From Candidatus Eiseniibacteriota bacterium (GTDB taxonomy: Bacteria > ARS69), in assembly GCA_052390515.1 (NCBI GenBank), contig JBQTGV010000047.1:1-37504 (forward strand): a stretch of DNA of 37,504 bases, written 5' to 3'. A model generated the notes under the pieces. It made no database searches. It worked only from the letters and a program-made list of their open reading frames with translations, and had not been told where the DNA came from. The position numbers and the translations under genes were made by a program. Shown in pieces: positions 9,292 to 31,229 of this stretch (its first letter is position 1; each line of letters opens with the position of its first letter).

Positions 9292-9996
9292 ATGAAGCGC
9301 AATACCTGGTTCACAGCACTTCTCACGGCGGCCGTGCTGCTCGCGGCTGTCTTCGCGGCGACGGCGTCAGCGGACATCAAGTCCGAAGACCTGTTCTTCC
9401 GCACCACGAACGCCAACGCGGCCACGAGCGCCCTGCCGTGGACGCTGCCTCAGGGGCACTCGTACTTCTCCGACTCGTCGGTCTTCCGCCAGATCGCCAC
9501 GGCGACCAACGAAGACACGACGATGGCGTATCCTATCAGCCGTTTCATCAAGAAGTGGCCGAACATCCCGGTCACAGCGGCGGCGGCGGTGGACTCGATG
9601 GCGCAGCCGTGGATGATCCTCACGGTGGCGAGTTCGACCAGCGACTACTCGTGGTCGGGCACCAACGCGCTGGACAGCATCTACATCTCGGCTCAGGTCA
9701 GCATCGACGGCTCGACGTGGACGAACGTGGACGGTACGCCGACCCGCGAGTTCTTCGCAGCGACGGCGAGCCCCATCGACGGCAATCCGTGTCTCACGGC
9801 CATCGAGCAGAACGCCGGGGCGAACTTCGCCACGGTGACGCTGGGGTGCGCACCGAAGTTGCAGTCGAAGGCCGACCGGCTGGTCATCAACCAGAACCTG
9901 TGCGCCCAGCCGGGGTGGGTCCGGTTCCTCGTCAGCACCGGAGCCGGGACGGGACAGTTCCGCCTCATCGCCACCTACGACGACGGCAGCAACTGA
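9292..9996 (+). CDS. Sec-signal-peptide protein with beta-sandwich (jelly-roll-like) domain; possible virion decoration/spike
   Basis: MKRNTWFTALLTAAVLLAAVFAATASA|DIK classical SPase I signal; AQVSIDGSTW...WVRFLV pattern of phage jelly-roll domains; directly upstream of portal. Confidence 0.7.
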   Translation: MKRNTWFTALLTAAVLLAAVFAATASADIKSEDLFFRTTNANAATSALPWTLPQGHSYFSDSSVFRQIATATNEDTTMAYPISRFIKKWPNIPVTAAAAVDSMAQPWMILTVASSTSDYSWSGTNALDSIYISAQVSIDGSTWTNVDGTPTREFFAATASPIDGNPCLTAIEQNAGANFATVTLGCAPKLQSKADRLVINQNLCAQPGWVRFLVSTGAGTGQFRLIATYDDGSN

Positions 9997-10003
9997 CCGG
10001 AGC

Positions 10004-12010
10004 ATGACCGAAGACCTGCCCATCTGCCAGAGGGTCAGGCGACTCGTTGAGGGGGCGCTGCCGTACTGGCGCCCCCTCAGGGAGGCCCGCCGCGAGGAGA
10101 TCGACTTCCTCGACGGCGACCGCTACGAAGATGACCACGGCCCCTACAACAAGGACCGCCGCGACCGGCAGTTCCGTGGTCAGGAAATCTCCTCCGTCGC
10201 ACGCAACAAGGCCGGTCAATCGACCGCCAACCCGCGCAGCATCGAAGCTCTCCCGGTGGACAGGTTCGCCGACGCAGACGACGCCGAGATCGCCGTGTCG
10301 ATTCTGGAGTGGGAGCTGAACCATCCCCAGAAGGGCTTCGACGATGTGCTGGACGAGGTCATCATCGATGCCCTCGAGAGTCGCGCCGGCTGCGCGATGC
10401 TGGAGTTCGACCCCGAGCTGGGCCAGTACGGTGGCGAGACGTTCTGGCGCTGGAAAGACCCGAACCTGGTCATGTGGACGCCGGGCTTCTCCGACCCGCA
10501 CCACGTCGCGTGCGAATGGATGATCGAGGCGCAACGCATCCCCATCGCCACCATCAAGCAGCGCGGCAAGGGCAAGGGCAAGGGCCGCTGGCGCGGGACC
10601 GATGAGATCGTCGGCGATGCCACGGCGACCTCGTCGTTCCCGGGCGAGGGCAGCACCAACCCGCTCGACCGCATCGGCGTCCCTGGCGAGTCCTACGACG
10701 ACGACCACGTCTGGGTCTACTTCTGCTGGTACAAGAACGACCCCTCGACCTACAAGCGCGAGAAGGAATCCAACGAGCTCCCCGAGGGCGAGCGGTACAT
10801 GGGGTGCGACAATCCCGAGTGCCAGTACCGGTCGATGACACAGGACGAGCTCCTGCTCGAGGGGAAGCTCGAGGACGGCGAGGAACTGCCGGAGGACATG
10901 GACCCGTGCCCGCTCTGCGGCGGACATCTCTCCCGGCGCGACATGTCGGTGGTCGAGGACGAGGTGCTGGCGTACCCCAAGGGCCGGCGGCTGGTCATCA
11001 TGCCCGCGTTCCAGCAGACGCCGGACGACCTGCCGTTCTACGACGGCCCGTGGCCGGTCCCCAAGGCCCGCTCGTTCCCCATCCTGTGGGTGACGGCGTA
11101 CGCCAAGGGCGGCCGCCCGATGGGAGACAGCGACACGACCCGGAACTGGGACGCGCAGATCGCCAGCGACCAGTTGATGACGATGGCGTTCGACCGGCTG
11201 ATGCGGCACCAGACCTACTACCTGATGCCGTCTGTGGGCATCACCGACACCAACGGCAAGCGGTTCGAGTTCCGGGACGACCAGTACAACGTGATGCTGG
11301 CCGACATGTCGGACGTGAACCGGCCGGCGCCGACGGTGACCACGGTGCAGGGCGCCTCGCTCGACTCGGCGTGGCCGACCTACTGGAACTCGGTGCAGCA
11401 GGTACTGCTCGGCCCGCAGGGCACGAACGACATGGGCCTGACGCCGGATTCGTCCAAGAACATCGCGGCGGCGACGGTGGCCCAGTTGGACCGCATCGGC
11501 AACATCCCGGTCGAGCACTTCAACCGGCGTAAGAACCGCGCCCTGGGCAAGGCGTACGGCGTCCACTGGGACTACATCCGCGCCACCTACACCTCGCGGC
11601 GTCTGGCCCGCATGCAGATCGGGGACGAGACGCTGGTGGACCGCCTGCGCGGGGATGACCAGCCGAACTTCGACTTCATCGTGAGCGAGGCGCCACCGTT
11701 CACCGGCCTCGAGAAGGCCCGGTCGGAGGCGTTCACCGCTCTCTACCAGATGGCCCAGACGACGCCGATGTGGGTAGACTTGTTCGCGGAAGTCAACAGA
11801 TTGCCACAGAGCGTCGTGCGTAAGGTCAAGCGCGCCATCGCAGAACAGAAGATGAAGGCCGAGCGCGATGCGATGATGGCCGCGCAGCAGATGGGCGCCG
11901 GCATCCCGGACGACCTGAGCGGGCTCGAGCCGCCGGCGATGGAGCCGAACCCGATGGACGTGGTACAACAGCAGTACGCTCCCGCTCCCGAAGCTCCCAT
12001 GGTCGCCTAG
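10004..12010 (+). CDS. Portal protein (P22-like)
   Basis: 668 aa; W...REARREEIDFLDGDRY, F....D....AG..., DP..V.W.P motifs; Q/M/P-rich tail; position before scaffold and capsid. Confidence 0.85.
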   Translation: MTEDLPICQRVRRLVEGALPYWRPLREARREEIDFLDGDRYEDDHGPYNKDRRDRQFRGQEISSVARNKAGQSTANPRSIEALPVDRFADADDAEIAVSILEWELNHPQKGFDDVLDEVIIDALESRAGCAMLEFDPELGQYGGETFWRWKDPNLVMWTPGFSDPHHVACEWMIEAQRIPIATIKQRGKGKGKGRWRGTDEIVGDATATSSFPGEGSTNPLDRIGVPGESYDDDHVWVYFCWYKNDPSTYKREKESNELPEGERYMGCDNPECQYRSMTQDELLLEGKLEDGEELPEDMDPCPLCGGHLSRRDMSVVEDEVLAYPKGRRLVIMPAFQQTPDDLPFYDGPWPVPKARSFPILWVTAYAKGGRPMGDSDTTRNWDAQIASDQLMTMAFDRLMRHQTYYLMPSVGITDTNGKRFEFRDDQYNVMLADMSDVNRPAPTVTTVQGASLDSAWPTYWNSVQQVLLGPQGTNDMGLTPDSSKNIAAATVAQLDRIGNIPVEHFNRRKNRALGKAYGVHWDYIRATYTSRRLARMQIGDETLVDRLRGDDQPNFDFIVSEAPPFTGLEKARSEAFTALYQMAQTTPMWVDLFAEVNRLPQSVVRKVKRAIAEQKMKAERDAMMAAQQMGAGIPDDLSGLEPPAMEPNPMDVVQQQYAPAPEAPMVA

Positions 12011-12037
12011 GCGGCCACAGCACAAGAGAGGATTCAC

Positions 12038-12799
12038 ATGCCCGACAAGGAAGCCGAACAGACGACGCTGACGGACCCGAAGGACGACACGGAGCCTCGT
12101 GACCAAGCCGAGGATCGTGGGACGCCTGAGGATGCCGAGCGGGACGCTGACGAGGCCACCGAACCGGACTACAAGGCCATCCACCTCGCGAACAAGGAAA
12201 CCATCGAGGGACTGAAGCGTCAGCTGGACGAGGTCAACGAGAAGCTCGCGCGCGGGACACAGCCAGCCCCCGAAGAGCAGAGCATGCAGGAAGACCTCGA
12301 CCAGCGAGCCGCCGCCATGGACAAGCTCCGGCGGCTGGCCGACGTGGACCCCGTTGCGGCCTTCGTCCTGCAACAGCAGGAGGAGGTGCAGCGCATCCGT
12401 CAGGACACGATGGACGCCTTCACGCTGTCGAAGTTGCCGGTCGAGAAGCAGCAGCCCGTCCTCCAGTTCTACGAGAAGTACCGGAGCCACTTCCCGAGTC
12501 TCGCGGCGTGCATCGAGTACGTCCGGGGCCGGGAGGCGCAGAGCCGGGTCGCGGAGCTGGAGAAGAAACTCGAGGAGCTGCAGAAGACCGGCGGCGGTGC
12601 GGACAAGGAACGCGAGGAGTTGGCCGATGTGGTTCGTACGGGAGGGCGTGACGTCAACCGAACGACCTACAAGGCCCAGACGATGTCCAAGGACACCTTC
12701 GACCAGCGGCAGCGCGAGTTCCGTGCGCAGGGACGGCACGAGGAAGCGATGGCCGAACAGGACAAGCTCCTGAAGGGGAAGATCGTCCTCAAGGGCTGA
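12038..12799 (+). CDS. Capsid scaffolding protein
   Basis: Acidic N-terminus and coiled coils; between portal and capsid. Confidence 0.7.
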   Translation: MPDKEAEQTTLTDPKDDTEPRDQAEDRGTPEDAERDADEATEPDYKAIHLANKETIEGLKRQLDEVNEKLARGTQPAPEEQSMQEDLDQRAAAMDKLRRLADVDPVAAFVLQQQEEVQRIRQDTMDAFTLSKLPVEKQQPVLQFYEKYRSHFPSLAACIEYVRGREAQSRVAELEKKLEELQKTGGGADKEREELADVVRTGGRDVNRTTYKAQTMSKDTFDQRQREFRAQGRHEEAMAEQDKLLKGKIVLKG

Positions 12800-12831
12800 C
12801 TCTGGCACAACGATAGGAAGGGATTCCGAAC

Positions 12832-13707
12832 ATGGCGGCAGGACTGTCCACAGCCTCGCCCCCGGTCCTCACTCCGGGCTCGAATCACGTCAACTACGAG
12901 GTGTTCTCTCGCACGGTCGAGAGTGCCACCTACCAGAAGCAGCAGCTCATCCCGCGCTTCAAGGATGTCGGCCGTCCGTACTCGAAGCTGACCATCAACA
13001 AGTGGGCGCGGGTGTCCTCGACCGCGCTGGCGGCCGGCAACCACGGCACCGGGCTCACCTACCAGGATCCCGTGGCGACCCCGCCGACGCTGGACCCGGC
13101 GGGCATCTACGTCGCGCTCGCCTTCTCGCAGAACGAGGCGGCCGAGAACCCCTACGACCTCGACTCCGAGCTGTCCGACGAGGCCACTCGGGCGCTGGCC
13201 GAGGGGAACGACACCAACGCGGCGCTGCAGTTCCCGGCGCTGACCCAGTTCCGTGGCAACGCGACCGATGACGTCACGTCGGCCCTGCTGCGGAACGCAC
13301 AGGCCCTCCTCACCCGGAACTCGAACGGCATGATCGCGCCGGGCGCCGGGATGGAGATCTACCTCGTGCTCGACGCCTCGCAGTACCCGGCGGTGATGAG
13401 CATCGAGGAGTACGCCAACGCCGAAGCGCGAGGCGATGGCGAGAACCCCTACGTCAAGGGTGTCTGGTCGAAGGGTGGCGGGCACAACCTGCTGTTCTCG
13501 ACCGTGCTCTCGACCGACGTGGACGGCACGCACGGCGCCCTGTGGGTGAAGGAAGCCCTCGGGGTCGGCTGGAACGTCCGCTCCATGGTGAAGAAGCAGT
13601 CGCTCGAGCTGCAGGAGCGGTGCATCCTGTTCAACCACCTCGGTACGACCGTCATCCACGACCTGCGGGCCGTGGCGATCCGTACCGGGAACACCATCGC
13701 GGCCTAA
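12832..13707 (+). CDS. Major capsid protein (HK97 fold, podovirus-type)
   Basis: 291 aa; strong codon bias; follows the scaffold; C-terminal ALGVGW....KKQSLELQER......GTTVIHDLRAVAI pattern. Confidence 0.75.
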   Translation: MAAGLSTASPPVLTPGSNHVNYEVFSRTVESATYQKQQLIPRFKDVGRPYSKLTINKWARVSSTALAAGNHGTGLTYQDPVATPPTLDPAGIYVALAFSQNEAAENPYDLDSELSDEATRALAEGNDTNAALQFPALTQFRGNATDDVTSALLRNAQALLTRNSNGMIAPGAGMEIYLVLDASQYPAVMSIEEYANAEARGDGENPYVKGVWSKGGGHNLLFSTVLSTDVDGTHGALWVKEALGVGWNVRSMVKKQSLELQERCILFNHLGTTVIHDLRAVAIRTGNTIAA

Positions 13708-13785
13708 GGGCCGACGCGGGGAGGCGGGGGCGAGGCAGGGAGCGCCGGACCCCCGCTGAACCGCACAACCAGAAAGGCTCCCATC

Positions 13786-14505
13786 ATGCCACTCGACCGT
13801 CACATCCATCTGCCCATCGGAACCAGGGAGGAGATCGAAGCGCAGGGCATGGACCCTGCCTTCGTCGCCTGCTGCGCCCCGCCGACCAAGGACGGCTCGG
13901 TCAAGGGCTGCGCGTGGTGGGAGAAGTGCCAGTTCCATCGCAAGGCGCTCGGTGGGTTCAAGGGCGAGGGGCCGAAGAACGTGGGCTTCTACATGCGCAC
14001 CGCGAACAGCGACGGCGCCCAGCAGCGTGAGGGTGTGGCCCCGTGCTTCCGGTTCGTCGCCACGCTCCAGCCCCGGATGCTGAACGGGCTCGACCGGAAG
14101 AACCGGGGACAGGATCACGAGGTCATCCAGGTCATCGCGCAGGAGGGCGAGAAGATCGTCGTCCGCGAGTGGAAGACGGTCGCCCCGGACGGCGGGAACA
14201 AGTCCAAGGACTACCGGATGAAGTCGAGCATCGTCGAGATGACGGTGCCCAAGTTCCCACGGCCCGGCGAGAACCCGGGCGTCACCTACGACAACCAGCT
14301 CGACCAGCGTGCGGCCGACCGCGAGCGCAGGGCGAGCGACCTCGAGGACATGCTGGCCGACCAGATGGCGGGCGCGGCGCCGAGGCATCGGCCGGAGGAC
14401 GACGTCGTCCCCGACCTGACGGAGCTGGGAGAGCCGCTCGAGACGGCCGACGCCACGCCGACCGTGCCGCTGGCGCAGCCGGTCAAGAAGAAGGGCCGGG
14501 GATGA
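13786..14505 (+). CDS. Hypothetical protein with Cys cluster, structural module
   Basis: AGAAAGG SD; CC...C.....C...C residues; acidic/basic C-terminal tail. Confidence 0.7.
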   Translation: MPLDRHIHLPIGTREEIEAQGMDPAFVACCAPPTKDGSVKGCAWWEKCQFHRKALGGFKGEGPKNVGFYMRTANSDGAQQREGVAPCFRFVATLQPRMLNGLDRKNRGQDHEVIQVIAQEGEKIVVREWKTVAPDGGNKSKDYRMKSSIVEMTVPKFPRPGENPGVTYDNQLDQRAADRERRASDLEDMLADQMAGAAPRHRPEDDVVPDLTELGEPLETADATPTVPLAQPVKKKGRG

Positions 14506-15083
14506 GCGCATCGCTGGACGTCCACCGAACCACCGACGACCTGAAGGAGGGCCTGCGGGCACGCAAGAAGGCGCCCGACAAGAACTACTTGAAGGCGAAG
14601 TACCCGCACGCGTTCCGCGAGCAGGTGAACCCCGAGACGGGCATCCCTGAGTGGCGGGTGGGCGGGCTCCGGCCGGACGGGACGCCGTTCCTGAAGCGTG
14701 AGGAGCAGCGCGAGCTCAACAACGAGCTGCGGCCGTTCATGTCGGCAGAGTCGGAGCGGGCCCGCAACCTGGCCTCGAGGCGCCCGAAGGGGGTCGTCCT
14801 GCGCGACAAGGACGGGGGCCGGCGCATCATCCATCCGGCGCTGGCGGATTCGGTCGCGCGGAAGAACGGCTGGAGGTCGGGTGAGCGCCCGCGCGGGAAT
14901 CGCGTGGAGCGCGGCGAGGGCGGGATGCTGTGGCGGATGGTGGCCGGGGCATGGATGCCGCTAGGGGTGCGATGCTTGGGGCGTCCGCTGAAGGGCAGCG
15001 CCCGCATCCCCCGACGCGGCATCCAGTACGACCCCGACGGTCGCCCGTGGCGCTGGGTCGGCCGTGAGTGGACGAGGCTCTGA
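14502..15083 (+). CDS. Basic hypothetical protein
   Basis: ATGA coupling; MSASLDVHRTTDDLKEG... Confidence 0.65.
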   Translation: MSASLDVHRTTDDLKEGLRARKKAPDKNYLKAKYPHAFREQVNPETGIPEWRVGGLRPDGTPFLKREEQRELNNELRPFMSAESERARNLASRRPKGVVLRDKDGGRRIIHPALADSVARKNGWRSGERPRGNRVERGEGGMLWRMVAGAWMPLGVRCLGRPLKGSARIPRRGIQYDPDGRPWRWVGREWTRL

Positions 15084-15781
15084 TGGCGACCATGGTTGAC
15101 GTGCGCCACCGGGTGCGAGAGCACCTGCGTGATACCGACTTCCGCCGTCCCGAGTGGGACACGGCGGCACTCGACAACGCCATCGCCGAAGCGTACATGG
15201 CGCTCGCCGCATGGCTGCCGGCGCCGACGGCGGTGGTCGAGTCGGCCGGCACCATCGCGGCCAATGCCGACACGTTCACGCTGCCGACCGCCGCCGGCGA
15301 GGAGTACGCGGGCGAGGTTCGCATCCGGCTCCGGTCGGATGGCTCGTTCCTCATCCAGCGCACGGTGGAGGAGATCGACATGCTGCGCGCGGGCGAGACT
15401 TCCACCGTAGGCACCACGCGACCGACTCACTTCTGCATGTGGGAGGAGCTGGATCAGGATGTCATCTGCCGGTGCTGGCCGAGGTCGCGCGATGCGGAAG
15501 CCTACGACATCCACCGGACGCTCGCACTCGCCGACCTGCGCGAGGGCGCGAGCCTTGACATCGAGACGGTGCGGTTCTCGCGATTCGGCGTCTCGTCGCT
15601 GGTGCTGCACGCGGCGGCATCGCTCGTCACGGGGGCGACCGACGAGGCGCTGTCGCGGCTGGGCCTGAGCCGTGGCGCCGCGCGGACATGGCAGCAGCAG
15701 TCGGACATCCTGCTCTACAAGGAACGCGAGCGACGTCACAACGTGGAATCGGTCGGTCGCGTGATGCGGCTGGTGCGCTGA
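15083..15781 (+). CDS. Head-tail adaptor / ring protein, paralog 1 (P22 gp4 / T7 gp11-like)
   Basis: VRHRVREHLRD....W....LDNAIAEA..; T.......FTLP; RPTHF; WP; helical C-terminus. Confidence 0.7.
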   Translation: MATMVDVRHRVREHLRDTDFRRPEWDTAALDNAIAEAYMALAAWLPAPTAVVESAGTIAANADTFTLPTAAGEEYAGEVRIRLRSDGSFLIQRTVEEIDMLRAGETSTVGTTRPTHFCMWEELDQDVICRCWPRSRDAEAYDIHRTLALADLREGASLDIETVRFSRFGVSSLVLHAAASLVTGATDEALSRLGLSRGAARTWQQQSDILLYKERERRHNVESVGRVMRLVR

Positions 15782-15782
15782 C

Positions 15783-20703: not shown

Positions 20704-20724
20704 CATCATTCACGGGAGGCACGG

Positions 20725-21609
20725 ATGCCAGTCGCACCAGTGATGGGCCGGGGGGCAAGACGCCCCGCCGCGTTCACATCGTACGAGATCGCCGACTCGC
20801 CGAGTCAGCAGTTGATGCGGCCGCGCACGGCCATGCCCGGTGGCGTGGGCCGGCAGGCGGCTCCGGGCGGGGCCCGCTCCGGCGCACGCACCGCCGCCCC
20901 GGCTGGCTCGAGCCCGTGGTCGGTGGGCGCCCTGTCCCAGTTCGGCGGTGACGTTCGCCGTGCCGGCTGGCAGCCCGGGCAGCCCCTCCCCGGCGGGCTC
21001 AGGATGCCGGGCGGCACGACCACGCCGGCGCCATCCCCCGGCGCCCCGTGGGATCCCAACGACCCCTTCGGCGGGGCGGTCAACCTGCTCGACCCCATCC
21101 GGGCGCTCATCGCCAAGGGAGGCCGAGAGGGCGTGTTCGGCCAGAACTACCTCGTTGACCGCCTGCGCCCGCAGGCGCTCCGCAACGCCAACGCCGGGAG
21201 AACGCGTACGGCAACGCTGGCGGGCCTCTCCGGGCTCGACCCCATGCAGTACCGTGGTGCCCTCGTGGACGCCGACATCTCGGCCAATCAGGGCATGGTG
21301 GGCGCTCTCAACGAGGCCCAGTTGCAGGGCGACATGGGATACCGCCAGATGCTGCTCGACCTGCTCAACCGGGAGCGGTACGGGGTCGAGGCTCCGGGCG
21401 AGTCGGCCAACATCGACCGGCGCTTCCAGGAGTCCCAGCGCGGCGGTATTGGCGGGTTCTTGGGCGGCGTTCTGGGGACCGGCCTCGGGGCGTTGACGGG
21501 CGGGCTTGGCAGCGGCCTCGGGGCCCGCCTCGCGGGCGGATCCGGCCTCGGCCGGATGCTCGACGACGCCAGCATCTACAACCCGCCGACTCCGGCCCTC
21601 AGGCGCTGA
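20725..21609 (+). CDS. Ejection (internal virion) protein 1 with Gly-zipper
   Basis: Low complexity; C-terminal GGIGGFLGGVLGTGLGALTGGLGSGLG; position after the nozzle. Confidence 0.6.
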   Translation: MPVAPVMGRGARRPAAFTSYEIADSPSQQLMRPRTAMPGGVGRQAAPGGARSGARTAAPAGSSPWSVGALSQFGGDVRRAGWQPGQPLPGGLRMPGGTTTPAPSPGAPWDPNDPFGGAVNLLDPIRALIAKGGREGVFGQNYLVDRLRPQALRNANAGRTRTATLAGLSGLDPMQYRGALVDADISANQGMVGALNEAQLQGDMGYRQMLLDLLNRERYGVEAPGESANIDRRFQESQRGGIGGFLGGVLGTGLGALTGGLGSGLGARLAGGSGLGRMLDDASIYNPPTPALRR

Positions 21610-22778
21610 TGAGCGTCTACGACTTCAATCCGCCCTCCGACGAGGAACTGGAACTCCTCATCGGCCCGCCCCCGAACCCGAACGCCCAGTTCGAGGAGCA
21701 GGCGTTCACCGCGAACCCGGTGGAGCGCATCCTCGAGGGGCTCGCGCGTTCCGCCCCCCGCCCCCCGGGGCCGGCGCGGAACTTCGGCGAGGGGCTGGCC
21801 TACGGCTTCGTGGGCGGGCTTCAGGGCGAGGGCGCCAAGGTCGCCACGGCCCGCGAGCGGTTCGACCGGAGGCAGGAAGCGCGGCGGCTCAACTTCGACG
21901 AGCAGCGCCGGGTCGCCACCGAGAAGCACCGCGAGAAGAAGTACGACGTCATCCGCGAGGCGTTCAAGGAGCATCGGGGGGCCAAGGAAAAGGAGAAGAA
22001 GTTCGAACTGGACAACCCGATGGTCGCCGATGAGGACGTGAAGGCGTTCCCGGGCCTTGAGCGGTTCCGTGGCCGACGCATCAGCCGCGACCTGTACGAG
22101 GAGATCACGAGCGGGAAGCTGGAGCGTGGTCAGGCGGTTGCCGACCGTCAGGCGGCGGCGGCCGAGCGGGCGGCCGAGGCGGCAGAGCGAGCGGCCCGAC
22201 AGGAGGCTCGCCGCATCCAACTCGACCAGGTGAACAACCTCGAAGGACTCGTCACACAGTACCGGCTCGACAAGGACGTAGAGGGGTACCGAAACACGGC
22301 CGCGCACTATCGTGCGGCCCAGTCCGCCGCCGCACAGAAGAACGGCGTCGGCGACCATGCTCTCGTGTTCGCCTACATGCGGTCCCGGGAGCCGGAGAAT
22401 CCCAACGCGGTGCGTGAAGGGGAGTTCGACACAGCGTCCAAGGCCGTCGGTGCGATGCAGAACGTATTCCTCAAGGCCACGCTCAAGCGTTACCTGAAGG
22501 GCGACATCCTGCTCCCCGAGGGACGCCGCATCATCCTCGATACCATCAGGGAGGGCATGGAGGCCAACCGGCAGACGTTTGAGATTGCCAACGCCCAGTA
22601 TCGGCGCCGCGCGTCGCTCATCGGTATTCCTGACCCCGAGTCCTACTTCATGCGTAATCCTTCTACCGAGGTGCCCGGAGTGTTCGACCGTGAGCGCGGC
22701 ACCCTCACGCCTGACGCCAAGGCCAGAATCCACGCACAACTCGATAGCCTGCGGTCCGGCGCTGCGGCGAGTCCCTGA
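21609..22778 (+). CDS. Ejection (internal virion) protein 2
   Basis: Coiled-coil rich; GDHALVFAYMRS.EP...AVREGEF motif seen in podovirus internal proteins. Confidence 0.6.
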   Translation: MSVYDFNPPSDEELELLIGPPPNPNAQFEEQAFTANPVERILEGLARSAPRPPGPARNFGEGLAYGFVGGLQGEGAKVATARERFDRRQEARRLNFDEQRRVATEKHREKKYDVIREAFKEHRGAKEKEKKFELDNPMVADEDVKAFPGLERFRGRRISRDLYEEITSGKLERGQAVADRQAAAAERAAEAAERAARQEARRIQLDQVNNLEGLVTQYRLDKDVEGYRNTAAHYRAAQSAAAQKNGVGDHALVFAYMRSREPENPNAVREGEFDTASKAVGAMQNVFLKATLKRYLKGDILLPEGRRIILDTIREGMEANRQTFEIANAQYRRRASLIGIPDPESYFMRNPSTEVPGVFDRERGTLTPDAKARIHAQLDSLRSGAAASP

Positions 22779-24142: not shown

Positions 24143-24149
24143 TTCGACG

Positions 24150-24881
24150 ATGAAGCGTAGCGTCTTTCTCAGTGTGCTGCTGGCGATGGCGATTCCGCTC
24201 GTCGTCATTGGCCAGACGGTGATTCAGGACGGGACGAGCTTCCGGCGTCAGATTCAGGGAGCGCCGGTCATGCTGCTGGACCCGTCCGACTCGACGGGGC
24301 AGGCGGCGCGGACGGATGGGAGCGGGAACCTGCTCGTGACCGACGCCGACCGCGACCGCGACCTGACGTTCCATGCCGAGATGATCTCGTCGGATTCTCT
24401 CCGGGCCAACGGAGATTCGTCGGTGGTCACGACGCTGAACGGAGCGAGCAGCCTGATTCTCGTCCTGAAGGGCTGCCCGAAGGTCACGACCACTTCGATC
24501 AGCCGAGTGGCGATTCAGTTCCGCACCCACGTCCTAGGGGTTTCGGACTCGTCGAAAACGGTGCCGCTATACCTCTACGGCTCTACCGGCACGGGGGTCA
24601 GCGCGGCGGTGGGTTCGGACAGTATGGTGGTCGGTCACACGCGGGCGGGTACGGCGAACGCCCCGTGGCCGGAGGAGATGGTCGTCTACTTCGACTTGGC
24701 TCGCTGCGGTCCCAACGGCAGCGCCTCGTCCACACTGTTCTACCCCGGAGGCATCGCCATCCCGCTCGACAACCTGTTCGGTCGCGGTGTCAGGCTCCAG
24801 AACATCAGCATCCGGGCACGGCTCATCTCCGGCCCCGCCGTTGCCGGCTTCACGGCTACCCTCATCGGGACCGGGCTGTGA
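24150..24881 (+). CDS. Sec-signal-peptide protein in the tail-fibre slot; fibre-like repeat plus beta-sandwich head
   Basis: GGAGGT SD; MKRSVFLSVLLAMAIPLVVIG|Q signal; ARTDGSGNLLVT resembles phage fibre shaft repeats; beta-rich C-terminal domain. Confidence 0.7.
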   Translation: MKRSVFLSVLLAMAIPLVVIGQTVIQDGTSFRRQIQGAPVMLLDPSDSTGQAARTDGSGNLLVTDADRDRDLTFHAEMISSDSLRANGDSSVVTTLNGASSLILVLKGCPKVTTTSISRVAIQFRTHVLGVSDSSKTVPLYLYGSTGTGVSAAVGSDSMVVGHTRAGTANAPWPEEMVVYFDLARCGPNGSASSTLFYPGGIAIPLDNLFGRGVRLQNISIRARLISGPAVAGFTATLIGTGL

Positions 24882-26908
24882 TGCGGTGGGGCCTGCTGCT
24901 AGTCGGGTTGCTGGCCGCCAGCCCTGCACCGGCCAAGGTTCTCGTAGTGGAGCACTACGTCAATCACGGGCTGTCTGCCGAGGCGACCGTTGACGCTCAG
25001 GTGATTCACGCCAGGTCGGCCAAGGTGCTGAGGAACATCCTCAACCGGAGCGGGGCAGACTATCGATGGGTTGACTACAAACAGACCCAGACGGAGTACT
25101 TCCGCAACGGGTATCAGGTCTGGGGGTACGGTTCTCCTGGGGCGACCGTTGAAACCTTCGACGGGGTCATCCACCTCAACTTCGGCGGCGTTCAGGGCAA
25201 TCGTCGCGCGGCGGCCAACGGTACGCTTACCGTTGGCAACCGCGCCAGGGTCGATAGCATGTTGTTCGGTGGATCGACGAAGGCCCCCACGAAGCCCCAG
25301 TTGGTGCTCATCAACAACACGATGGCGCTGATCGGTAGCACGACATATGAAGAGATGTTCGACGCTATCAACTGCACCACGGGGGTGAACGCTCTAAGCG
25401 GCGGGTCGTTCATGTATCCGGCATCGGAGCCGACCAGGCCGTTCATCGTGGGAAGTTACGTTTCGGCGTTGGTGATGAATACGACTCCCCCGGATGGTGG
25501 CGTGAGGGTTCACCTGAAGTCGAGCACCGTTGCGCCGTACCACTCCCTCACCTATGACCCTCCCGCCAGCCTGACGTATTCGTGGCCCGACAGCATCGTG
25601 CCGGGCGCTGCCGACACGGCGGTGGTGTGGGAGAGGCTCATGTCCCACATCAACGGGTCGGCGCCCATCGTGTTCGCCAGCACCGCTGGCGCCGGCTACC
25701 CGGCAGACTCGATCTACAACACTGACGCTGTGATGCACGCCCCCGGAGAGTTGGAGTCGTCGATTATCTTGTATGCGCTGGCCCGCTTCGATTCTCTTAC
25801 GAATGGCGGCGTGTGGCCGACTGGCAAGGTGCCGGTGAAGCTTGGGTTGACGATTGACGGCGGATTCGCCCGCAACGCCCGACTTCACCCGCGAGGAATA
25901 CTCGCGGCAGACTCCTCGGCTCTCAAGTCCAGCATCGACTCTCTGGCCGCCTTGGACATCCCGTTCGTCGTAGGCGTCAACGTCTGCTCAGTGGCAACGT
26001 ATCCCAGCGAGAAGGGATGGTGGGCGGCTGCTCGCAAGGCACGATACTCGCCGCAGCCGTGGACCGGCATCGACAGTACGGCCAACAGCGGGAACTCGTC
26101 GTTCCTGCTCCCGATCGACATGTGGGGGCGCTATCGGAAGCGCATCGCGTTCGGAGACTCATCGGCGACGGGGCGAGACACTAGTCTGTGGGCGCTGTTT
26201 CGTGGCGGGCTCTACAAGTGCGACTCCATCTTCGGGAGCGACCGGGTGTCTCGCTTCGCCTTGCCGCCCGACGACGATTGGACTCCGCGCGGCATGAACA
26301 ACTCGTCATCCGGCCCCGGCGTTGATTCTGTGTTGTTCGCCATGAAACGCGCCGGCTTCGTCGGGGTACGCTCCAACACCACCGACCGTGATTGCGACCC
26401 CGAGTATCTGCCGGGCAACCCGCGCGGCTGGCATGTCAGACAGGGCGTCTACCGTGACGCCCGGAATGGCAAGTTCAAGGTGCTGGGATATCCCGGCTAT
26501 CCGCTCGGTGGAGGCAGTAGGTTGATGGTTGCCGTCACCGACACCACCCACCCATATTCTGCGGGGTTGGTCGGGAAGCTTTACTCGGAGATTTATCGCG
26601 CATGGCAGGGGATGTGGCAGCTCCAGGACTGGAACTACGACGCGTTCCCGACGAACGACGTTGTCTACCCGGACAGCAGGGTGTGGGATGGCGTGGAGTT
26701 CAACATAAAGGACCGTCTCTACGCTGAGAAGAAACTGGGAAGCCTGATTCGCTTGTCTGCTTGCGATTTTTCCGGCGACCCGAACGGCCCTCCTGCTAGG
26801 CTTGGGTGGTGGACGGTCAAGAGCCTTGCCAACCAGTTCCGCGCCATCAACAACGCGGCGAACCGAAGCATCGTTATCTTCGCCTACCCCGAGGACATCA
26901 ACCCATGA
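24881..26908 (+). CDS. Large Sec-signal-peptide protein, 675 aa, with degenerate polysaccharide-deacetylase (NodB)-like barrel
   Basis: TGATG coupling; MRWGLLLVGLLAASPAPA|K signal; LGLTIDGG, LDIPFVVGVN, FALPP and KRAGFVGVR resemble CE4 motifs but lack the DD/His metal ligands. Confidence 0.65.
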   Translation: MRWGLLLVGLLAASPAPAKVLVVEHYVNHGLSAEATVDAQVIHARSAKVLRNILNRSGADYRWVDYKQTQTEYFRNGYQVWGYGSPGATVETFDGVIHLNFGGVQGNRRAAANGTLTVGNRARVDSMLFGGSTKAPTKPQLVLINNTMALIGSTTYEEMFDAINCTTGVNALSGGSFMYPASEPTRPFIVGSYVSALVMNTTPPDGGVRVHLKSSTVAPYHSLTYDPPASLTYSWPDSIVPGAADTAVVWERLMSHINGSAPIVFASTAGAGYPADSIYNTDAVMHAPGELESSIILYALARFDSLTNGGVWPTGKVPVKLGLTIDGGFARNARLHPRGILAADSSALKSSIDSLAALDIPFVVGVNVCSVATYPSEKGWWAAARKARYSPQPWTGIDSTANSGNSSFLLPIDMWGRYRKRIAFGDSSATGRDTSLWALFRGGLYKCDSIFGSDRVSRFALPPDDDWTPRGMNNSSSGPGVDSVLFAMKRAGFVGVRSNTTDRDCDPEYLPGNPRGWHVRQGVYRDARNGKFKVLGYPGYPLGGGSRLMVAVTDTTHPYSAGLVGKLYSEIYRAWQGMWQLQDWNYDAFPTNDVVYPDSRVWDGVEFNIKDRLYAEKKLGSLIRLSACDFSGDPNGPPARLGWWTVKSLANQFRAINNAANRSIVIFAYPEDINP

Positions 26909-27027
26909 CCACTCCCCGTCCGGGCGTGACACGCAAACCACTAACCACAGGAGGGTCCTCAGCGAGACAGACACCCTGTCGATTGGGAGGAGTTCGCATC
27001 ACCGAAGCGCCCGGACGGGGGGTCGGT
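26908..27027 (+). ncRNA. Candidate structured RNA element before the endolysin
   Basis: 16-bp stem (26911-26926 with 27008-27023, one G-U pair) enclosing a nested TCCTC..GACAG-loop-CTGTC..GAGGA hairpin; also spanned by a 43-codon ORF 26905-27036. Confidence 0.45.
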
Positions 27028-27032
27028 GAACC

Positions 27033-27545
27033 GTGAGCGACAGGCTAGAGGCCATCATCAGCGACATCCTCCTGCGCGAGGGTGGCTACGTTGACCACCC
27101 GGCCGACAAGGGCGGGCCGACCAAGTTCGGCATCACGCAGGCCACCCTCAGCGACTGGCGACACCGGCAGGTCACGCCCGAAGAAGTCCGCCTCATGGAC
27201 GAGGACGAGGCGCGTGACATCTACCGGGCCCGCTACATCATCGACCCCGGCTTCGGCGGGCTGCCGGACGCCCTGCGCGACCTCGTGGTGGACTGCGCGG
27301 TCAACCACGGACCAACAAGGGCCGTCGCATGGCTCCGCGAGGCCGCAGGGCTATCGACCATCGGCAAGATGGGGCCGGAGGTGGACATGGCGCTGCAGGA
27401 CCTAGGCGCCCCGCGCGTCTACCGCAAACTGCTCGGCAAGCGGGTGAGGTTCTATGGGCGCATCATCACCGACAACCCCAAGCAGGCGGCCTTCGCCGCC
27501 GGCTGGGCGAACCGGGTCGCCTCGTTCGTGGAGATGACACCATGA
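27033..27545 (+). CDS. Endolysin, glycoside hydrolase family 108 with C-terminal peptidoglycan-binding domain
   Basis: EGGYVDHPADKGGPTKFGIT catalytic motif; D.AVNHG; F..GW.NRV C-terminus. Confidence 0.93.
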   Translation: MSDRLEAIISDILLREGGYVDHPADKGGPTKFGITQATLSDWRHRQVTPEEVRLMDEDEARDIYRARYIIDPGFGGLPDALRDLVVDCAVNHGPTRAVAWLREAAGLSTIGKMGPEVDMALQDLGAPRVYRKLLGKRVRFYGRIITDNPKQAAFAAGWANRVASFVEMTP

Positions 27546-27799
27546 CACCGCAGCGCGACCACGACGGCCACCTTCGCATCCTGCCCCGCGACCTGCTAGC
27601 CTACGCCGTCCTGCTCGCCGCCATCCTCGGTCAGTGGTACGCGCTCAACGCCAAGATCGACAGCTTCATGGAAGTGTCGGAGGCTCGCCACAAGGCCGCC
27701 GATGCCGACCGCGAGCGCATCTGGGACGTGCTCGTAGGTCAGGCCCGGGCTTCGGGTCAGGAGAAGGCGGCAGAGCCCGCCAGAAAGGAAGGACGCTAG
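27542..27799 (+). CDS. Single-TM coiled-coil protein, holin/antiholin-like
   Basis: ATGA coupling to the endolysin; TM LLAYAVLLAAILGQWYAL then a charged coil. Confidence 0.6.
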   Translation: MTPQRDHDGHLRILPRDLLAYAVLLAAILGQWYALNAKIDSFMEVSEARHKAADADRERIWDVLVGQARASGQEKAAEPARKEGR

Positions 27800-27991
27800 A
27801 TGGAATCGGTCCTGCGGAGTTCGGAGTTCTGGGTTGCCATCGTCACAGCCATCGGCGTGGGCGGCGCCCGCGCGGGTTGGTGGAGTGACGCCGACTTCAC
27901 GGAGTTCGTCGCCCCGGCGCTCCTCTACGTCGTCGCCCGCGTCACGTCCAAGCTCGCCAAGTCTGTTACCCTGAAGGCCCCGGTCAAGTAG
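27800..27991 (+). CDS. Putative holin, 2 TM
   Basis: 63 aa; SSEFWVAIVTAIG and VAPALLYVVAR hydrophobic segments; basic C-terminus. Confidence 0.65.
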   Translation: MESVLRSSEFWVAIVTAIGVGGARAGWWSDADFTEFVAPALLYVVARVTSKLAKSVTLKAPVK

Positions 27992-27992
27992 C

Positions 27993-28115
27993 ATGGACAA
28001 CGACACGCTGAAGGCGCTAGGCATCGTGCTGGCGCTCTACCTGCTCGGCCGCTGGCTAGCGGGCGACACACTGGGGCGATGGACGCCCCGCATCAACAAG
28101 GGAGGTAAGCGGTGA
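27993..28115 (+). CDS. Small membrane peptide, 40 aa (MDNDTLKALGIVLALYLLGRWLAGDTLGRWTPRINKGGKR)
   Basis: Fills the gap exactly; GTGA coupling to the next gene; one hydrophobic helix. Confidence 0.5.
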   Translation: MDNDTLKALGIVLALYLLGRWLAGDTLGRWTPRINKGGKR

Positions 28116-28639
28116 AGCTGCACCTGAGTTGGCCCGTCCTGCTCGCCATCGCTGCGGCGGTGGTGGCATCGTGGGCGGTGGAAGTGGACGACTGCGATGC
28201 GGCTTCCCTGTGGGAGTCGGTCAGCGTCGGAATCGGTGGTCAGGGTGTCTGGGTGGACGAGGGCGGTGCGCCGGCCTTCCGGGATGCGGAGGCTATCGGG
28301 CGGGCATCGCTCGGCGTGACGCCCCACGTCAACCTCGTGGGCGGCGTGTCCTACGGTGTGGACAAGTCCTACCTGCGCGGCTCTGGCGGCGTCAGGATCA
28401 CGGCCACCGACGTCAACGACCCGAACTTCTCCATCGGGGTCGGTGTCTCGAGACACTACGTCAGCGAGCCGGATGCTGGGCTCGATGAGGCGGCCGCTGA
28501 AGCCGCCATCGGCTGGAAGCCGTTCACCTCGTCCCGGGTCGTCCTGACCGGCCTCGCGGTCTACGGCATCGACACGGGCCGGCGCATGTTCTCGGCCGGC
28601 GTCGTCTGGCCCTTCAAGGTCGTGGGAGGTGGACAGTGA
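28112..28639 (+). CDS. Signal-peptide protein resembling an 8-stranded outer-membrane beta-barrel
   Basis: GGAGGT SD; N-terminal hydrophobic signal; about eight amphipathic strands with alternating G/hydrophobic residues and aromatic ends. Confidence 0.6.
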   Translation: MKLHLSWPVLLAIAAAVVASWAVEVDDCDAASLWESVSVGIGGQGVWVDEGGAPAFRDAEAIGRASLGVTPHVNLVGGVSYGVDKSYLRGSGGVRITATDVNDPNFSIGVGVSRHYVSEPDAGLDEAAAEAAIGWKPFTSSRVVLTGLAVYGIDTGRRMFSAGVVWPFKVVGGGQ

Positions 28640-28881
28640 CCATCCAGGACATCATCAACCGGGCGGCGCCGGCGCTCATCGGGCTCGCGGCAGAGCTCGA
28701 GGCGGCCATCGCCAAGTACCCGGATCTCGCGGGGTCGCTGCAGCCCAAGGCCGACGCGCTGAAGGCTGCGGCCGACCCGCTGGCGCTGGCGCAGCTCGGC
28801 AGCACGGTGCTGAACGAGTTGACGCAGTTCGCTCGAACGGGGACGCTGGACCCGAGGAGCAGCCCGAGCAATCTGGCGTAG
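28636..28881 (+). CDS. Helical hypothetical protein, last gene of the rightward arm
   Basis: GGAGG SD, GTGA coupling, 81 aa. Confidence 0.65.
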   Translation: MTIQDIINRAAPALIGLAAELEAAIAKYPDLAGSLQPKADALKAAADPLALAQLGSTVLNELTQFARTGTLDPRSSPSNLA

Positions 28882-28921
28882 CGGAGCGGTGGGCACCCGT
28901 GCCTTGCGAGGCCGGGGTAGC

Positions 28922-28951
28922 AGGGGGCGGCGGCTACGGCCTCCGCCCTTT
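28922..28951 (+). terminator. Putative intrinsic terminator between the convergent arms
   Basis: GGGCGG-CGGC-TACG-GCC-T-CCGCCC hairpin followed by only TTT. Confidence 0.45.
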
Positions 28952-28973
28952 GACCTTCAGCGCACCCTCGTGC

Positions 28974-29735
28974 TTAGAGCGGCAAAACGCGCTGCGCGAG
29001 CCGCCGCACGGCAATCTCGCAGTAGCGTTCCTCGACCTCGATGCCGATGGCGCAGCGGCCCATTCTCTTGGCGGCGTCCAGCGTTGTGCCAGCGCCCATG
29101 AACGGGTCGAGCACCAAGTCTCCGGGCTGACTGTGGAGCCGGATAAACAGCGCGAACAGGTCAAGCGGCTTGGGTGTCGGATGGTCGTCGGCTTGCGGCT
29201 TGATGCCGTTGATGCGAACCACGTTGGCTTGGGCGTTCCCGCCGTACCACTTGCACGCCGCGCCGGGCTTCTCGGCCACCAAGACCATCTCGTAGTTTCG
29301 GCGATAGTGCCATCCCATGCCAAGACCGCCTTTGTCCCAGACCACCGCCTGTTTGAATCCGATAGCCTCGTCCATCCACAGCGACCAACGGGCGAACTGG
29401 GGGTCAGGTCCGCCGCCGCCGCCGCAGCAGCAGCAGCAAGAGCCGGGCCGTATGAGCCTGTTGGCCTCTCCGAAAAACCACCGCACTAGATCGTTGGCTT
29501 CTGGCCCGTCGTTGGCGATGGGTCGCGCCAGCGGTGCGGCAGCCCCCGCAGGGAGGATGCCCAGCGCAGCCTCCCGGCGGTGCGCTAAGTCGCCGTTGTT
29601 GTTGTTGTGTCCGTAGGGCGGGTCCGTGAGAATGAGGTCGATGCTGGCGTCGGCGAGCGACGGCATAATCTCCCTACAGTCTCCATGGTAGATGGTGATT
29701 CCGTCCTCGTCGTAGTACGGTCGCGGAAGGCTCAT
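28974..29735 (-). CDS. DNA methyltransferase (N6-A/N4-C, beta class), orphan
   Basis: MSLPRPYY...TIYHGDC, LILTDPPY (motif IV), HPTPKP, VLDPFMGAGTT (motif I); true start ATG 29735 by ATGA coupling. Confidence 0.92.
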   Translation of the reverse strand: MSLPRPYYDEDGITIYHGDCREIMPSLADASIDLILTDPPYGHNNNNGDLAHRREAALGILPAGAAAPLARPIANDGPEANDLVRWFFGEANRLIRPGSCCCCCGGGGGPDPQFARWSLWMDEAIGFKQAVVWDKGGLGMGWHYRRNYEMVLVAEKPGAACKWYGGNAQANVVRINGIKPQADDHPTPKPLDLFALFIRLHSQPGDLVLDPFMGAGTTLDAAKRMGRCAIGIEVEERYCEIAVRRLAQRVLPL

Positions 29736-30127
29736 CTCACCCTCGTCTTGACGCCAGCCTGGCGGAGCTTGGCGCCCAACTCCTGCACGCTGCGAGCGAT
29801 TATGTAGATGCCGCCAGCCGCCTCCCACTTGAGAGCGAAGGCGCGCTGTGCGGGCGACTGGCGGCCACGCTCGCTTTTCACTTCCACCGCTATGGGGGTC
29901 GGCTGCCGCATCGTTACCGGCGGAAGCCCGAACGAACGGCGGTCGTAGGTCTTGAGCGGCGCAATCGCAATAATGTCCGCTATGCCCCTGCTCGGCGCAG
30001 GACGGAACCGCCCCGGCTGGCCTGCGATGGGGACCCCGGTGACGTTGATGCGCCACGCTGCAATGCCGTTCGCGGCGAGGTAGTCTAGGCACGCCTTCAG
30101 GATGCGACCCTCGGGGGTCTTGCTCAT
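29732..30127 (-). CDS. VRR-NUC domain nuclease (resolvase-like)
   Basis: E..I...CLDYL, GIADII, AVEVKS..GRQSPAQ..F....GG.Y..ARSV. Confidence 0.85.
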   Translation of the reverse strand: MSKTPEGRILKACLDYLAANGIAAWRINVTGVPIAGQPGRFRPAPSRGIADIIAIAPLKTYDRRSFGLPPVTMRQPTPIAVEVKSERGRQSPAQRAFALKWEAAGGIYIIARSVQELGAKLRQAGVKTRVR

Positions 30128-30297
30128 TCGCGCCTCCACTTCCAGCCACAATGGCGGCATCGCAGCCAGCCGCCACGGGACTCAATCGCATGGCTGCCGT
30201 GCAGCCACTCGCACAATCCAGAGAGCAAGACCTCGCGGAAGAACCAGCCGGGGGCGACAAGCGGGATAATCAGCCACCCGAGCCATTCGCGGCTCAT
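30124..30297 (-). CDS. Small Zn-finger-like hypothetical protein, 57 aa
   Basis: MSREWLGWLIIP...C...HGSH...CRHCG; ATGA coupling. Confidence 0.55.
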   Translation of the reverse strand: MSREWLGWLIIPLVAPGWFFREVLLSGLCEWLHGSHAIESRGGWLRCRHCGWKWRRE

Positions 30298-30343
30298 CTC
30301 TCCACCCTCACCGCCGCCGGCCGCACGCTGGAGGTAGTAGTAG

Positions 30344-30649
30344 TCACAGCTTCCCCTCCTTGATCCGCTGCTCCATGATTGGCTTGATGGCGTTCACGGC
30401 TTCGCAGATGAGCGAGGCGAAGTGATATTCGCGCTCGTTGTCGGGGTGCGTGGTCGGTTTGCTCTGGTCGTTGCGGTAAACGGTCGCAACCTGAACACGC
30501 AGGCCCGCCTCATCATCCGTCGCCTTGATGCGTTCCTCAAAGACGGCGATGGGTTGGTATCCCTCGTCGTGCTTCAGGCCCACCACGAGGCGGTCGGGCT
30601 GTACGAGGTTGTAGAGCCGTTGCAGTCGCAGCCAGTCAGATAGAGTCAC
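30344..30649 (-). CDS. Hypothetical protein
   Basis: GTGA-coupled 101-aa ORF with SD. Confidence 0.65.
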   Translation of the reverse strand: MTLSDWLRLQRLYNLVQPDRLVVGLKHDEGYQPIAVFEERIKATDDEAGLRVQVATVYRNDQSKPTTHPDNEREYHFASLICEAVNAIKPIMEQRIKEGKL

Positions 30650-31017
30650 CGCGTCACCTCCACCCTTCCCGGCCTGACGCTCGTTGTGTCCACGTAGGCG
30701 CTGTCACATCCACCGCCCGCCCGGTTGGACGCCCACACGCTCATGCGGTAGATGCCGCTGGCGAGGTCCGTGCGCTGCCACAGGGCTTCGGCGCCGGGCA
30801 TGGTGAGCAGGGAGTCGTGGCCGACGAGTTCCGGGCGAGCGCCGACCGGGCCGGTCCAGCGGACGTGGAGCCATAGGGGGGAGTAGAGGGTGTCGGTGGC
30901 GACGGAGCAGCCGGGACCGGCACCCTGCGTGGGCATGGTGGCTCTCACCGTCAACGTTGCGGCGCTGACGCAGGACGCGACGGTGAGCAGCGCGAGCGCC
31001 AGCAGGGCGCGGGTCAT
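30646..31017 (-). CDS. Sec-signal-peptide protein with a single Fn3/Ig-like domain
   Basis: MTRALLALALLTVASCVSA|A signal; DLASGIYRMSVWASNRAG is Fn3-like. Confidence 0.7.
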   Translation of the reverse strand: MTRALLALALLTVASCVSAATLTVRATMPTQGAGPGCSVATDTLYSPLWLHVRWTGPVGARPELVGHDSLLTMPGAEALWQRTDLASGIYRMSVWASNRAGGGCDSAYVDTTSVRPGRVEVTR

Positions 31018-31229
31018 GGGCGGCGACCGTGGATTGGGTTCTCGCAGTCTCCGGCATGGGCCAACCCCTCGCTGCCGCTGGTTGCCGAAACATACTCACA
31101 ACCACGCACCTTGATGATGCGGTATTCGGTCACGCCGCCAAAAAACGTGCAGCCCAGCCCTTGGCTTTCTCCCTTAGCACCGCACCCTAGCGGCATCAGG
31201 CAGAGAGCAATCAGGACGGCTTTCCTCAT
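31014..31229 (-). CDS. Small lipoprotein, 71 aa
   Basis: MRKAVLIALCLMPLG|C lipobox; C-terminal GCEYV....LAHAGDCENPIH motif of small phage lipoproteins. Confidence 0.7.
   Translation of the reverse strand: MRKAVLIALCLMPLGCGAKGESQGLGCTFFGGVTEYRIIKVRGCEYVSATSGSEGLAHAGDCENPIHGRRP

Follow-up and report, generated by a model that had tools for sequence, protein, structure and literature searches.

Introduction

The general O-glycosylation system of Bacteroidota, the closest described counterpart of what we report here, acts on exported proteins at a tripeptide sequon. As set out in PMC12871550, Asp is nearly obligatory in this sequon, Ser is slightly preferred over Thr at the second position, and the third residue is favored in the order L, I, V, T, A, S, M. 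The same review describes the motif as enriched in non-cytoplasmic proteins, mainly of Bacteroidota and also of Fibrobacterota, and the transferase, ligase and core flippase of the Bacteroidota system as undiscovered. Bacteroidota glycoproteomes are covered by PMC8729774 and PMC8550257, and the glycoproteome of P. gingivalis gives 257 sites in 145 proteins, or about 1.8 sites per glycoprotein. Here we analyze a window that consists of the whole 37,504-nucleotide contig JBQTGV010000047.1, the genome of an uncultured tailed phage binned in a metagenome-assembled genome of Candidatus Eiseniibacteriota (GCA_052390515.1). Four of its proteins, all with predicted export signals, are rich in the canonical sequon D-(S/T)-(A/I/L/V/M/T).

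The phage proteins resemble the Bacteroidota glycoproteins in that the targets are exported and the tripeptide is identical, with a strict Asp followed by Ser or Thr and then mostly by L, I, V, M or T, less often by S or A. Individual exported proteins of Sinomicrobium, our Bacteroidota control, likewise show a several-fold excess of the motif under the same script. However, the carriers here are phage proteins, and the density and conservation of their sequons lie far above the roughly 1.8 sites per glycoprotein of P. gingivalis. The phage also has a G+C content (GC) of 68% and frequent Shine-Dalgarno (SD) motifs, which occur at 5% of genes in the Bacteroidota control, and for these two reasons its host is probably not a classical member of the Bacteroidota.

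A second point of comparison is offered by Llp of phage T5 and Cor of phages phi80 and N15, exported phage lipoproteins that block receptors and are encoded next to tail genes. Like the proteins considered here, they are Sec-exported phage products whose genes neighbor those for host recognition or early functions. Their place of action is the cell envelope and not the particle, as we would expect of the present set. We know of no glycosylation sequons in Llp or Cor.

Sequon enrichment in the exported phage proteins

The sequon enrichment in the exported proteins of this phage is real, specific to the compartment and to the order of residues, replicated and deeply conserved. Genes were called by us from third-position GC and signal peptides by a crude heuristic of our own, not by Prodigal or SignalP. 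By this heuristic Sec-type signal peptides, with basic, hydrophobic and cleavage regions, start all four proteins: a 675-aa protein with a deacetylase-like predicted fold, its 243-aa partner, a 234-aa protein encoded ahead of the portal gene, and a 123-aa lipoprotein (Table 1). Expectations were taken from 3000 composition shuffles per protein and are given below as canonical sequons observed over the shuffle mean. Together the four proteins hold 20 canonical sequons where 5.20 are expected from composition (Poisson P=6.3e-7). Inclusion of a fifth signal-bearing open reading frame (ORF) without sequons gives 20 versus 5.76 (P=2.9e-6), and omission of the 675-aa protein from the exported set gives 10 versus 3.00 (P=0.0011). 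The remaining 38 ORFs have 25 sequons against 24.8 expected. An initial sequence-only reading of the window had counted Asp residues and D-[ST] pairs (Asp followed by Ser or Thr) in these proteins and proposed that exported phage proteins are enriched over non-exported ones; its counts were all exact on recount, and the enrichment survives when Ser/Thr content is corrected for by shuffling.

Taken singly, the 675-aa protein has 10/2.2, a value reached by none of the 3000 shuffles, and the lipoprotein 4/0.5 (p=0.001). The 234-aa protein (3/1.2, p=0.11) and the 243-aa protein (3/1.3, p=0.12) are not significant alone. The non-exported controls stand at 2/2.0 (portal) and 0/0.9 (putative capsid). 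The excess also depends on residue order. The four mature proteins contain the sequon 20 times, compared with 6 for its mirror image X-[ST]-D, 5 for each of three further permutations and 0 for E-[ST]-X, so that a local richness in Ser, Thr and Asp does not explain it. It might still be argued that the excess arose by chance, or that it follows from a high content of Ser and Thr or a local skew in composition, since two of the four proteins are not significant singly and the hypothesis was formed after the sequences had been looked at. We consider this very improbable, because the pooled value remains at P=6e-7 after composition correction, the mirror and permutation controls are flat, and the excess recurs in two other phages and in 154 members of the family of the 675-aa protein, which carry 1541 sequons versus 368 expected (ratio 4.2).

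The two other phages show the same division between exported and remaining proteins. In G001, a complete IMG/VR contig, signal-flagged ORFs have 20/5.1 sequons and the rest 24/21.9; in L128 the members of the exported pair have 4/0.8 and 11/1.8, and the other 8 ORFs have 10 versus about 11. All three phages encode a signal-bearing protein of about 240 aa and a large signal-bearing protein between their tail genes and lysis genes. The exported proteins of the related phages have no Pfam match.

Two further ORFs are recorded here as separate observations. A non-exported 389-aa ORF in the tail region of the window (21609-22778, plus strand) has 3/0.5 canonical sequons (p=0.009) and is the sole outlier among the signal-less ORFs. 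In G001, a 683-aa protein encoded after the lysis genes (30443-32494; L002:14189-16240) has a signal-peptide-like N-terminus and 6 sequons versus 3.0 expected; it escaped the export heuristic and was therefore counted among the other ORFs, and it too lacks a Pfam match.

Conservation of the sequon sites

The 675-aa protein belongs to an unnamed family that comprises 297 clusters in a profile search at E<=0.001, 221 of them at <=1e-30; its relatives share 29-47% identity with it. Among the 154 members, every fourth N-terminus was printed, and these are signal-peptide-like except in three rows, which are apparently late starts or truncated; throughout the family the amino-acid composition is typical of high GC. 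In an alignment of 115 family sequences with a mean column identity of 18%, the sites kept as canonical sequons are D304 (in 112 of the 115), D482 (109), D353 (107), D237 (94), D245 (91), D125 (89), D344 (84, or 105 with Ser allowed as the third residue), D554 (71), D276 (69) and D448 (66). At the best of these sites D304 is conserved to 100% and S305 to 98%. Sequon residues make up 13 of the 29 columns conserved to at least 90%, and 7 of the 9 Asp residues conserved to that level have Ser or Thr next to them. The expectation of the sequence-only reading that the sites would be conserved in homologues is thus borne out, the sites being among the best-conserved columns of the alignment.

Substitutions within the family follow the pattern described for the Bacteroidota sequon. 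Glu or Asn hardly ever takes the place of Asp at the sequon sites. At the position following D-[ST], L is enriched 3.6-fold, T and M 1.9-fold each, I and V 1.6-fold each and S 1.3-fold, and polar and charged residues, Gly and Pro stand at 0.31 or below. Ser and Thr interchange at site 245 (T62/S32), site 344 (S51/T46) and site 433 (T67/S29).

Sites are conserved as well in the three smaller proteins, so that four unrelated families each retain their D-[ST] positions. Three homologues of the 234-aa protein (57-66% identity) retain all 4 of its D-[ST] sites, and a remote homologue encoded in synteny by phage G001 has them at identical or neighboring positions. The 243-aa protein has homologues in G001 and L128 (25-33% identity), each encoded upstream of the deacetylase-like gene, and 4 of the D-[ST] sites fall in the same or neighboring columns of their alignment. 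In the lipoprotein 3 of the 4 sequon Asp residues are invariant in 6 of 6 sequences and the fourth is present in 5 of 6 (67-83% identity). The same 6 sequences all retain a lipobox, Ser15-Cys16, after the hydrophobic signal region, and this feature of bacterial lipoproteins is therefore present. Structural information on the smaller proteins is limited to an AlphaFold2 (AF2) model of the 234-aa protein that is unusable at a predicted local distance difference test score (pLDDT) of 43.6, and to weak Atlas leads for the 243-aa protein (scores <=0.88).

The AF2 model of the 675-aa protein is of much higher quality (pLDDT 88.5; predicted template-modeling score, pTM, 0.93). Sequon sites 237, 245, 276, 398, 426 and 554 map to loops, sites 125, 344, 433 and 482 lie at or just before the starts of helices, and further sites fall at helix ends. 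This distribution over loops and both ends of helices is more readily explained by recognition of the sequence than by one structural role.

Predicted fold of the 675-aa protein

Foldseek comparison of the model suggests that the 675-aa protein is deacetylase-like. Its best matches are NDST1, an N-deacetylase of heparan sulfate (9f6z, E 7e-8; 8ccy, 2e-7), and Agd3, a deacetylase of fungi (6nwz, 1e-6), all with a probability of 1.0 and low TM-scores of 0.33-0.37; weaker matches include ArnD, a Pseudomonas polysaccharide deacetylase and ThuA-like proteins. The nearest named clusters in the Atlas are of DUF2334 (score 0.93), a lead only. Unlike these likenesses of predicted fold, the sequence gives no match: there is none in Pfam at E<=1e-3 (Polysacc_deac_1 and DUF2334 included), none in PHROGs and none to a sequence in the PDB at E<=1.

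Polysaccharide deacetylases have a metal-dependent Asp-His-His site. Such a site is not evident from the family alignment, where no His occurs among the 29 columns conserved to at least 90%; D413 and D466 are conserved. Given the absence of Pfam, PHROG and PDB sequence matches and of a His column at that level, we describe the protein as deacetylase-like on the strength of its model and do not place it within the deacetylase family.

Sequon use in the binned genome and in other bacteria

The window is the entire contig C47 of a 4.27-Mb metagenome-assembled genome (223 contigs, 95% complete). In an rpoB tree (FastTree) this binned genome falls inside a fully supported clade of 29 rows, outside Bacteroidota and Gemmatimonadota, and every named row of the clade is a lineage of the Fibrobacterota-Chlorobiota-Bacteroidota (FCB) superphylum. 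One rpoB locus of the tree, L011, from a record titled Chitinophagales bacterium, falls among Bacillota and away from the other Bacteroidota rows, probably through a labeling or binning problem in that record.

Phage and genome are linked by binning alone. There is no DNA or spacer-like match between the phage contig and the rest of the binned genome, and tblastn of the 43 phage proteins against it returned one weak methyltransferase match and nothing else. Tetranucleotide deviations of the phage correlate at 0.878 with those of the binned genome and at the same 0.878 with those of a Gemmatimonadota genome, compared with 0.975 among the binned genome's own chunks. Because the phage is equally similar to both genomes, the binning carries no real information about the host.

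We then compared sequon use in several bacterial genomes with the same script. Genome-wide ratios proved to be a weak test, and for that reason a per-protein tail test (the proteins with p<0.01) with nine control motifs was added. In the Sinomicrobium control (400 kb) the overall ratio was 1.04-1.09 for exported versus 0.94 for cytoplasmic proteins, and the tail held 7 of 101 exported versus 1 of 144 cytoplasmic proteins, with 0-2 for the control motifs. The signature was also present in a Gemmatimonadota genome (G015, C2:1-695119, 695 kb). Its exported proteins have 374 sequons for 214 expected (1.75), the mirror motif occurs 247 times, and 14 of 142 exported proteins lie in the tail; its membrane proteins have 265/182 and its cytoplasmic proteins 175/171. 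The residue after D-[ST] in this genome prefers L, T, I, V and A. These data suggest that a sequon of the Bacteroidota type works in Gemmatimonadota.

Smaller samples gave mixed results. Exported proteins of the Gemmatimonadales genome G818 have 24/13.5 sequons, which is nominally significant (P=0.006). A small sample of KSB1 (G820:C65:1-80000) with 15 exported proteins has 19 versus 9.3 (P=0.004), with 8 for the mirror motif and 24/30 in cytoplasmic proteins. No significant excess was seen in the small samples of G819 (18/14.6), a deep-branching Gemmatimonadota genome (9/6.4) and Calditrichales (2/2.7), and in Myxococcota 0 of 50 proteins lie in the tail. Judged by their sequences, the exported phage proteins resemble what a sequon-using FCB bacterium exports and differ from the exported proteins of the binned genome.

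The tail of the binned genome itself owes its weight to three beta-helix paralogues and to a protein with DUF11-like repeats, the latter recognized by eye and not by a scan. The paralogues (G000 C177:476-3889, C58:52342-55725 and C126:8174-11542) are exported, about 1180 aa long and have 21/5.0, 19/5.5 and 15/5.3 sequons; they are the only clear sequon-rich proteins of this genome. Of the three, only the C177 copy was scanned, and it bears a C-terminal sorting domain of type IX secretion (T9SS). Across the binned genome, 159 proteins with a C-terminus resembling a T9SS sorting domain show no sequon excess (0.88).

Proposed host glycosylation and alternative explanations

The best single explanation that we can offer is that the host O-glycosylates the exported phage proteins, an interpretation drawn from sequence to which we would give about an even chance of being correct. 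The deacetylase-like enzyme, its small partner, the lipoprotein and the pre-portal protein would all pass through the Sec pathway into the periplasm. There the D-(S/T)-hydrophobic tripeptides would be read by a general O-glycosylation system of the Bacteroidota kind, by which the host would coat the exported phage proteins with sugar. The host would be a high-GC Gram-negative bacterium that uses the sequon, possibly an FCB-superphylum member akin to Gemmatimonadota and not the binned genome. The deacetylase-like enzyme might modify or destroy host surface polysaccharide. With the host supplying the modification, the phage could do without a glycosyltransferase gene, and, as the sequence-only reading had proposed, none was found among the 43 ORFs scanned with Pfam and PHROGs.

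Part of the earlier proposal of host glycosylation stands. The enrichment is confined to exported proteins, order-specific and conserved, and it fits the published sequon at all three positions. The signature is, however, missing from the binned genome and its sister genus. Also without support is the idea that the modified proteins belong to the virion, since none of the four has a match to structural families in Pfam or PHROGs. On that idea the exported glycosylated proteins would join the particle, for example as host-recognition gear that assembles outside the cytoplasm. The exported pair does lie between tail and lysis genes, the usual position of receptor-binding genes, in all three phages, and L128 has no other fiber candidate after its 1012-aa tail protein. 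Nevertheless we think it quite improbable: the Pfam and PHROG scans gave no similarity to structural proteins, the large one looks like an enzyme, and the lipoprotein and the pre-portal protein do not fit the role of a fiber. To our knowledge, there is no route by which periplasmic proteins join tailed-phage particles.

Several observations weigh against host glycosylation. The first concern the host. In the binned genome, a host candidate by binning only, the secretome bias that the sequence-only reading anticipated did not appear: signal-peptide proteins have 699 sequons for 778 expected, or 0.90 (858 exported proteins), and cytoplasmic proteins stand at 0.85. Of the 858 exported proteins 10 lie in its tail, where control motifs give up to 10, and of 1430 cytoplasmic proteins none does; exported proteins of the sister genus have 88/122 (0.72) with 0 of 83 in the tail. 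SD-like motifs occur at 36-51% of the genes of the phages, nearer to the 43% of the binned genome than to the 20% of G015 or the 5% of the Bacteroidota control; the sister genus stands at 50%, Gemmatimonadota at 20-35% and their deep-branching member at 46%. The family of the 675-aa protein is found in none of 401 Bacteroidota genomes and in none of 11 other genomes of the binned phylum; 401 Gemmatimonadota genomes yielded one marginal match (E 9e-4) for it and none for the portal. The host machinery itself cannot be searched for, because its transferase is among the components given as undiscovered in PMC12871550. The remaining points concern the sites. In the family of the 675-aa protein five sites are 91-98% Ser with no more than 3% Thr, and sites 304, 353 and 448 sit in the last turns of helices in the AF2 model; so marked a bias to Ser, and sequon residues conserved to about the degree that catalytic residues would be, are stricter than we would expect of glycosites.

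The portal has no match in cultured phages or in IMG/VR. The family of the 675-aa protein has no match in cultured phages or, by a pattern scan, in species genomes, and it was found at 1 locus in the IMG/VR scan and 4 loci in the metagenome scan.

The behavior of the sites raises the question of whether the D-S dipeptides are structural or functional elements of the folds, such as helix caps, turns, or ligand and metal contacts, with no relation to glycosylation. Their very high conservation in the 115 sequences, in which D304 is invariant, the strict Ser at five sites, and the placement of seven sites at helix starts or in last helix turns would all follow naturally, as would a binned genome without the signature. 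We nonetheless regard this account as unlikely. The motif is common to four unrelated families, one an alpha/beta enzyme and the others of unknown fold; it is order-specific and shows no excess in the 38 non-exported ORFs; and within the 675-aa protein it sits in loops, helix starts and helix ends alike, with Ser and Thr swapping freely at sites 245, 344 and 433. Moreover, the residue that follows D-[ST] obeys the published glycosylation preference.

Somewhat less probable still is that the tripeptide is read by another sequence-directed process of the periplasm, be it modification or processing, in an SD-using host such as the binned phylum. The agreement in SD use between the phages and both the binned genome and its sister genus would be accounted for, as would the three beta-helix paralogues, described as bearing T9SS sorting domains, with 15-21 sequons versus 5.0-5.5 expected. 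We know of no such alternative process, however, and the exported proteins of the binned phylum overall show no excess, while the motif fits the known sequon at all three positions.

A wider reading, which we put forward tentatively and think rather doubtful as a whole, joins host glycosylation to the gene arrangement of the three phages. Tailed phages of sequon-using FCB bacteria would Sec-export a conserved, envelope-acting module, made up of the deacetylase-like enzyme and its partner and encoded at the host-recognition position, and would depend on host O-glycosylation for its maturation. That dependence would be the reason why the sequons are conserved like catalytic residues. Sequon density could then mark the phylum of the host, and the code would reach far beyond Bacteroidota, with strong use in Gemmatimonadota and perhaps some in KSB1.

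Should the sequons indeed be used, a bacterial virus would rely on the protein-glycosylation machinery of its host, as animal viruses do. Full-text literature searches found no paper describing tailed phages that rely on host protein glycosylation. The 297 clusters would define a large unnamed family of exported phage enzymes, and sequon excess in signal-bearing ORFs would provide a cheap marker for assigning uncultured phages to sequon-using hosts. In G015 the 1.75-fold excess is limited to exported and membrane proteins. It widens the probable distribution of a system that has been regarded as specific to Bacteroidota, and this Gemmatimonadota signature could help a comparative-genomics search for the still undiscovered transferase. 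The searches found nothing on the sequon in Gemmatimonadota, with the proviso that Figure 2A or the supplement of PMC12871550 may already show other phyla.

Gene content of the phage contig

The four exported proteins are listed in Table 1 with the phage genes identified by Pfam and PHROG scans of the 43 ORFs. These scans found no integrase, and no tRNA genes were found on the contig. The product of the terminase-like gene may be a terminase or a replication ATPase interrupted by an intein or a homing-endonuclease domain.

Table 1. Features of the phage contig, with counts of Asp, of D-[ST] and of canonical sequons where determined
Feature	Position	Strand	Asp; D-[ST]; canonical	Evidence and remarks
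Terminase-like P-loop protein, 913 aa	4952-7693	+		PHROG matches to terminase large subunit and primase/helicase-loader P-loops; Pfam LAGLIDADG_3 at residues 282-344
Exported 234-aa protein, unknown fold	9292..9996	+	13; 4 (DSS, DTT, DSM, DSI); 3	Between terminase-like gene region and portal gene
Portal protein	10004..12010	+	61; 5; 2	PHROG portal 1e-20; Pfam P22_portal; non-exported control
Putative major capsid protein	12832..13707	+	14; 2; 0	Label from position only; no Pfam/PHROG match; non-exported control
Exported 243-aa partner protein	24150..24881	+	14; 5; 3	Stop overlaps start of the gene for the 675-aa protein
Exported 675-aa protein	24881..26908	+	41; 14; 10	Polysaccharide-deacetylase-like predicted fold; ThuA-like N-terminal domain
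Endolysin	27033..27545	+		Pfam Glyco_hydro_108 6e-25 (GH108) and PG_binding_3; PHROG endolysin 4e-38; lysis block directly after exported pair
Fifth signal-peptide- or membrane-anchor-like ORF	28112..28639	+	canonical 0 (0.6 expected)	Adjoins lysis genes
Lipoprotein, 123 aa	30646..31017	-	5; 4; 4	Early minus-strand gene block
DNA methyltransferase, HNH endonuclease, YqaJ exonuclease, Erf annealing protein		-		Family scans

An identical 15-nt tandem repeat is present at both ends of the contig (window 1-265 and 37105-37504, minus strand). Its translation gives the A(N/D)LSG repeats of one pentapeptide-repeat protein, with the N-terminal half at the contig start and the C-terminal half at the contig end. 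Because one gene is split in this way across both ends, the contig is probably a circularly closed, complete or nearly complete phage genome of about 37 kb whose assembly broke inside the pentapeptide-repeat gene.

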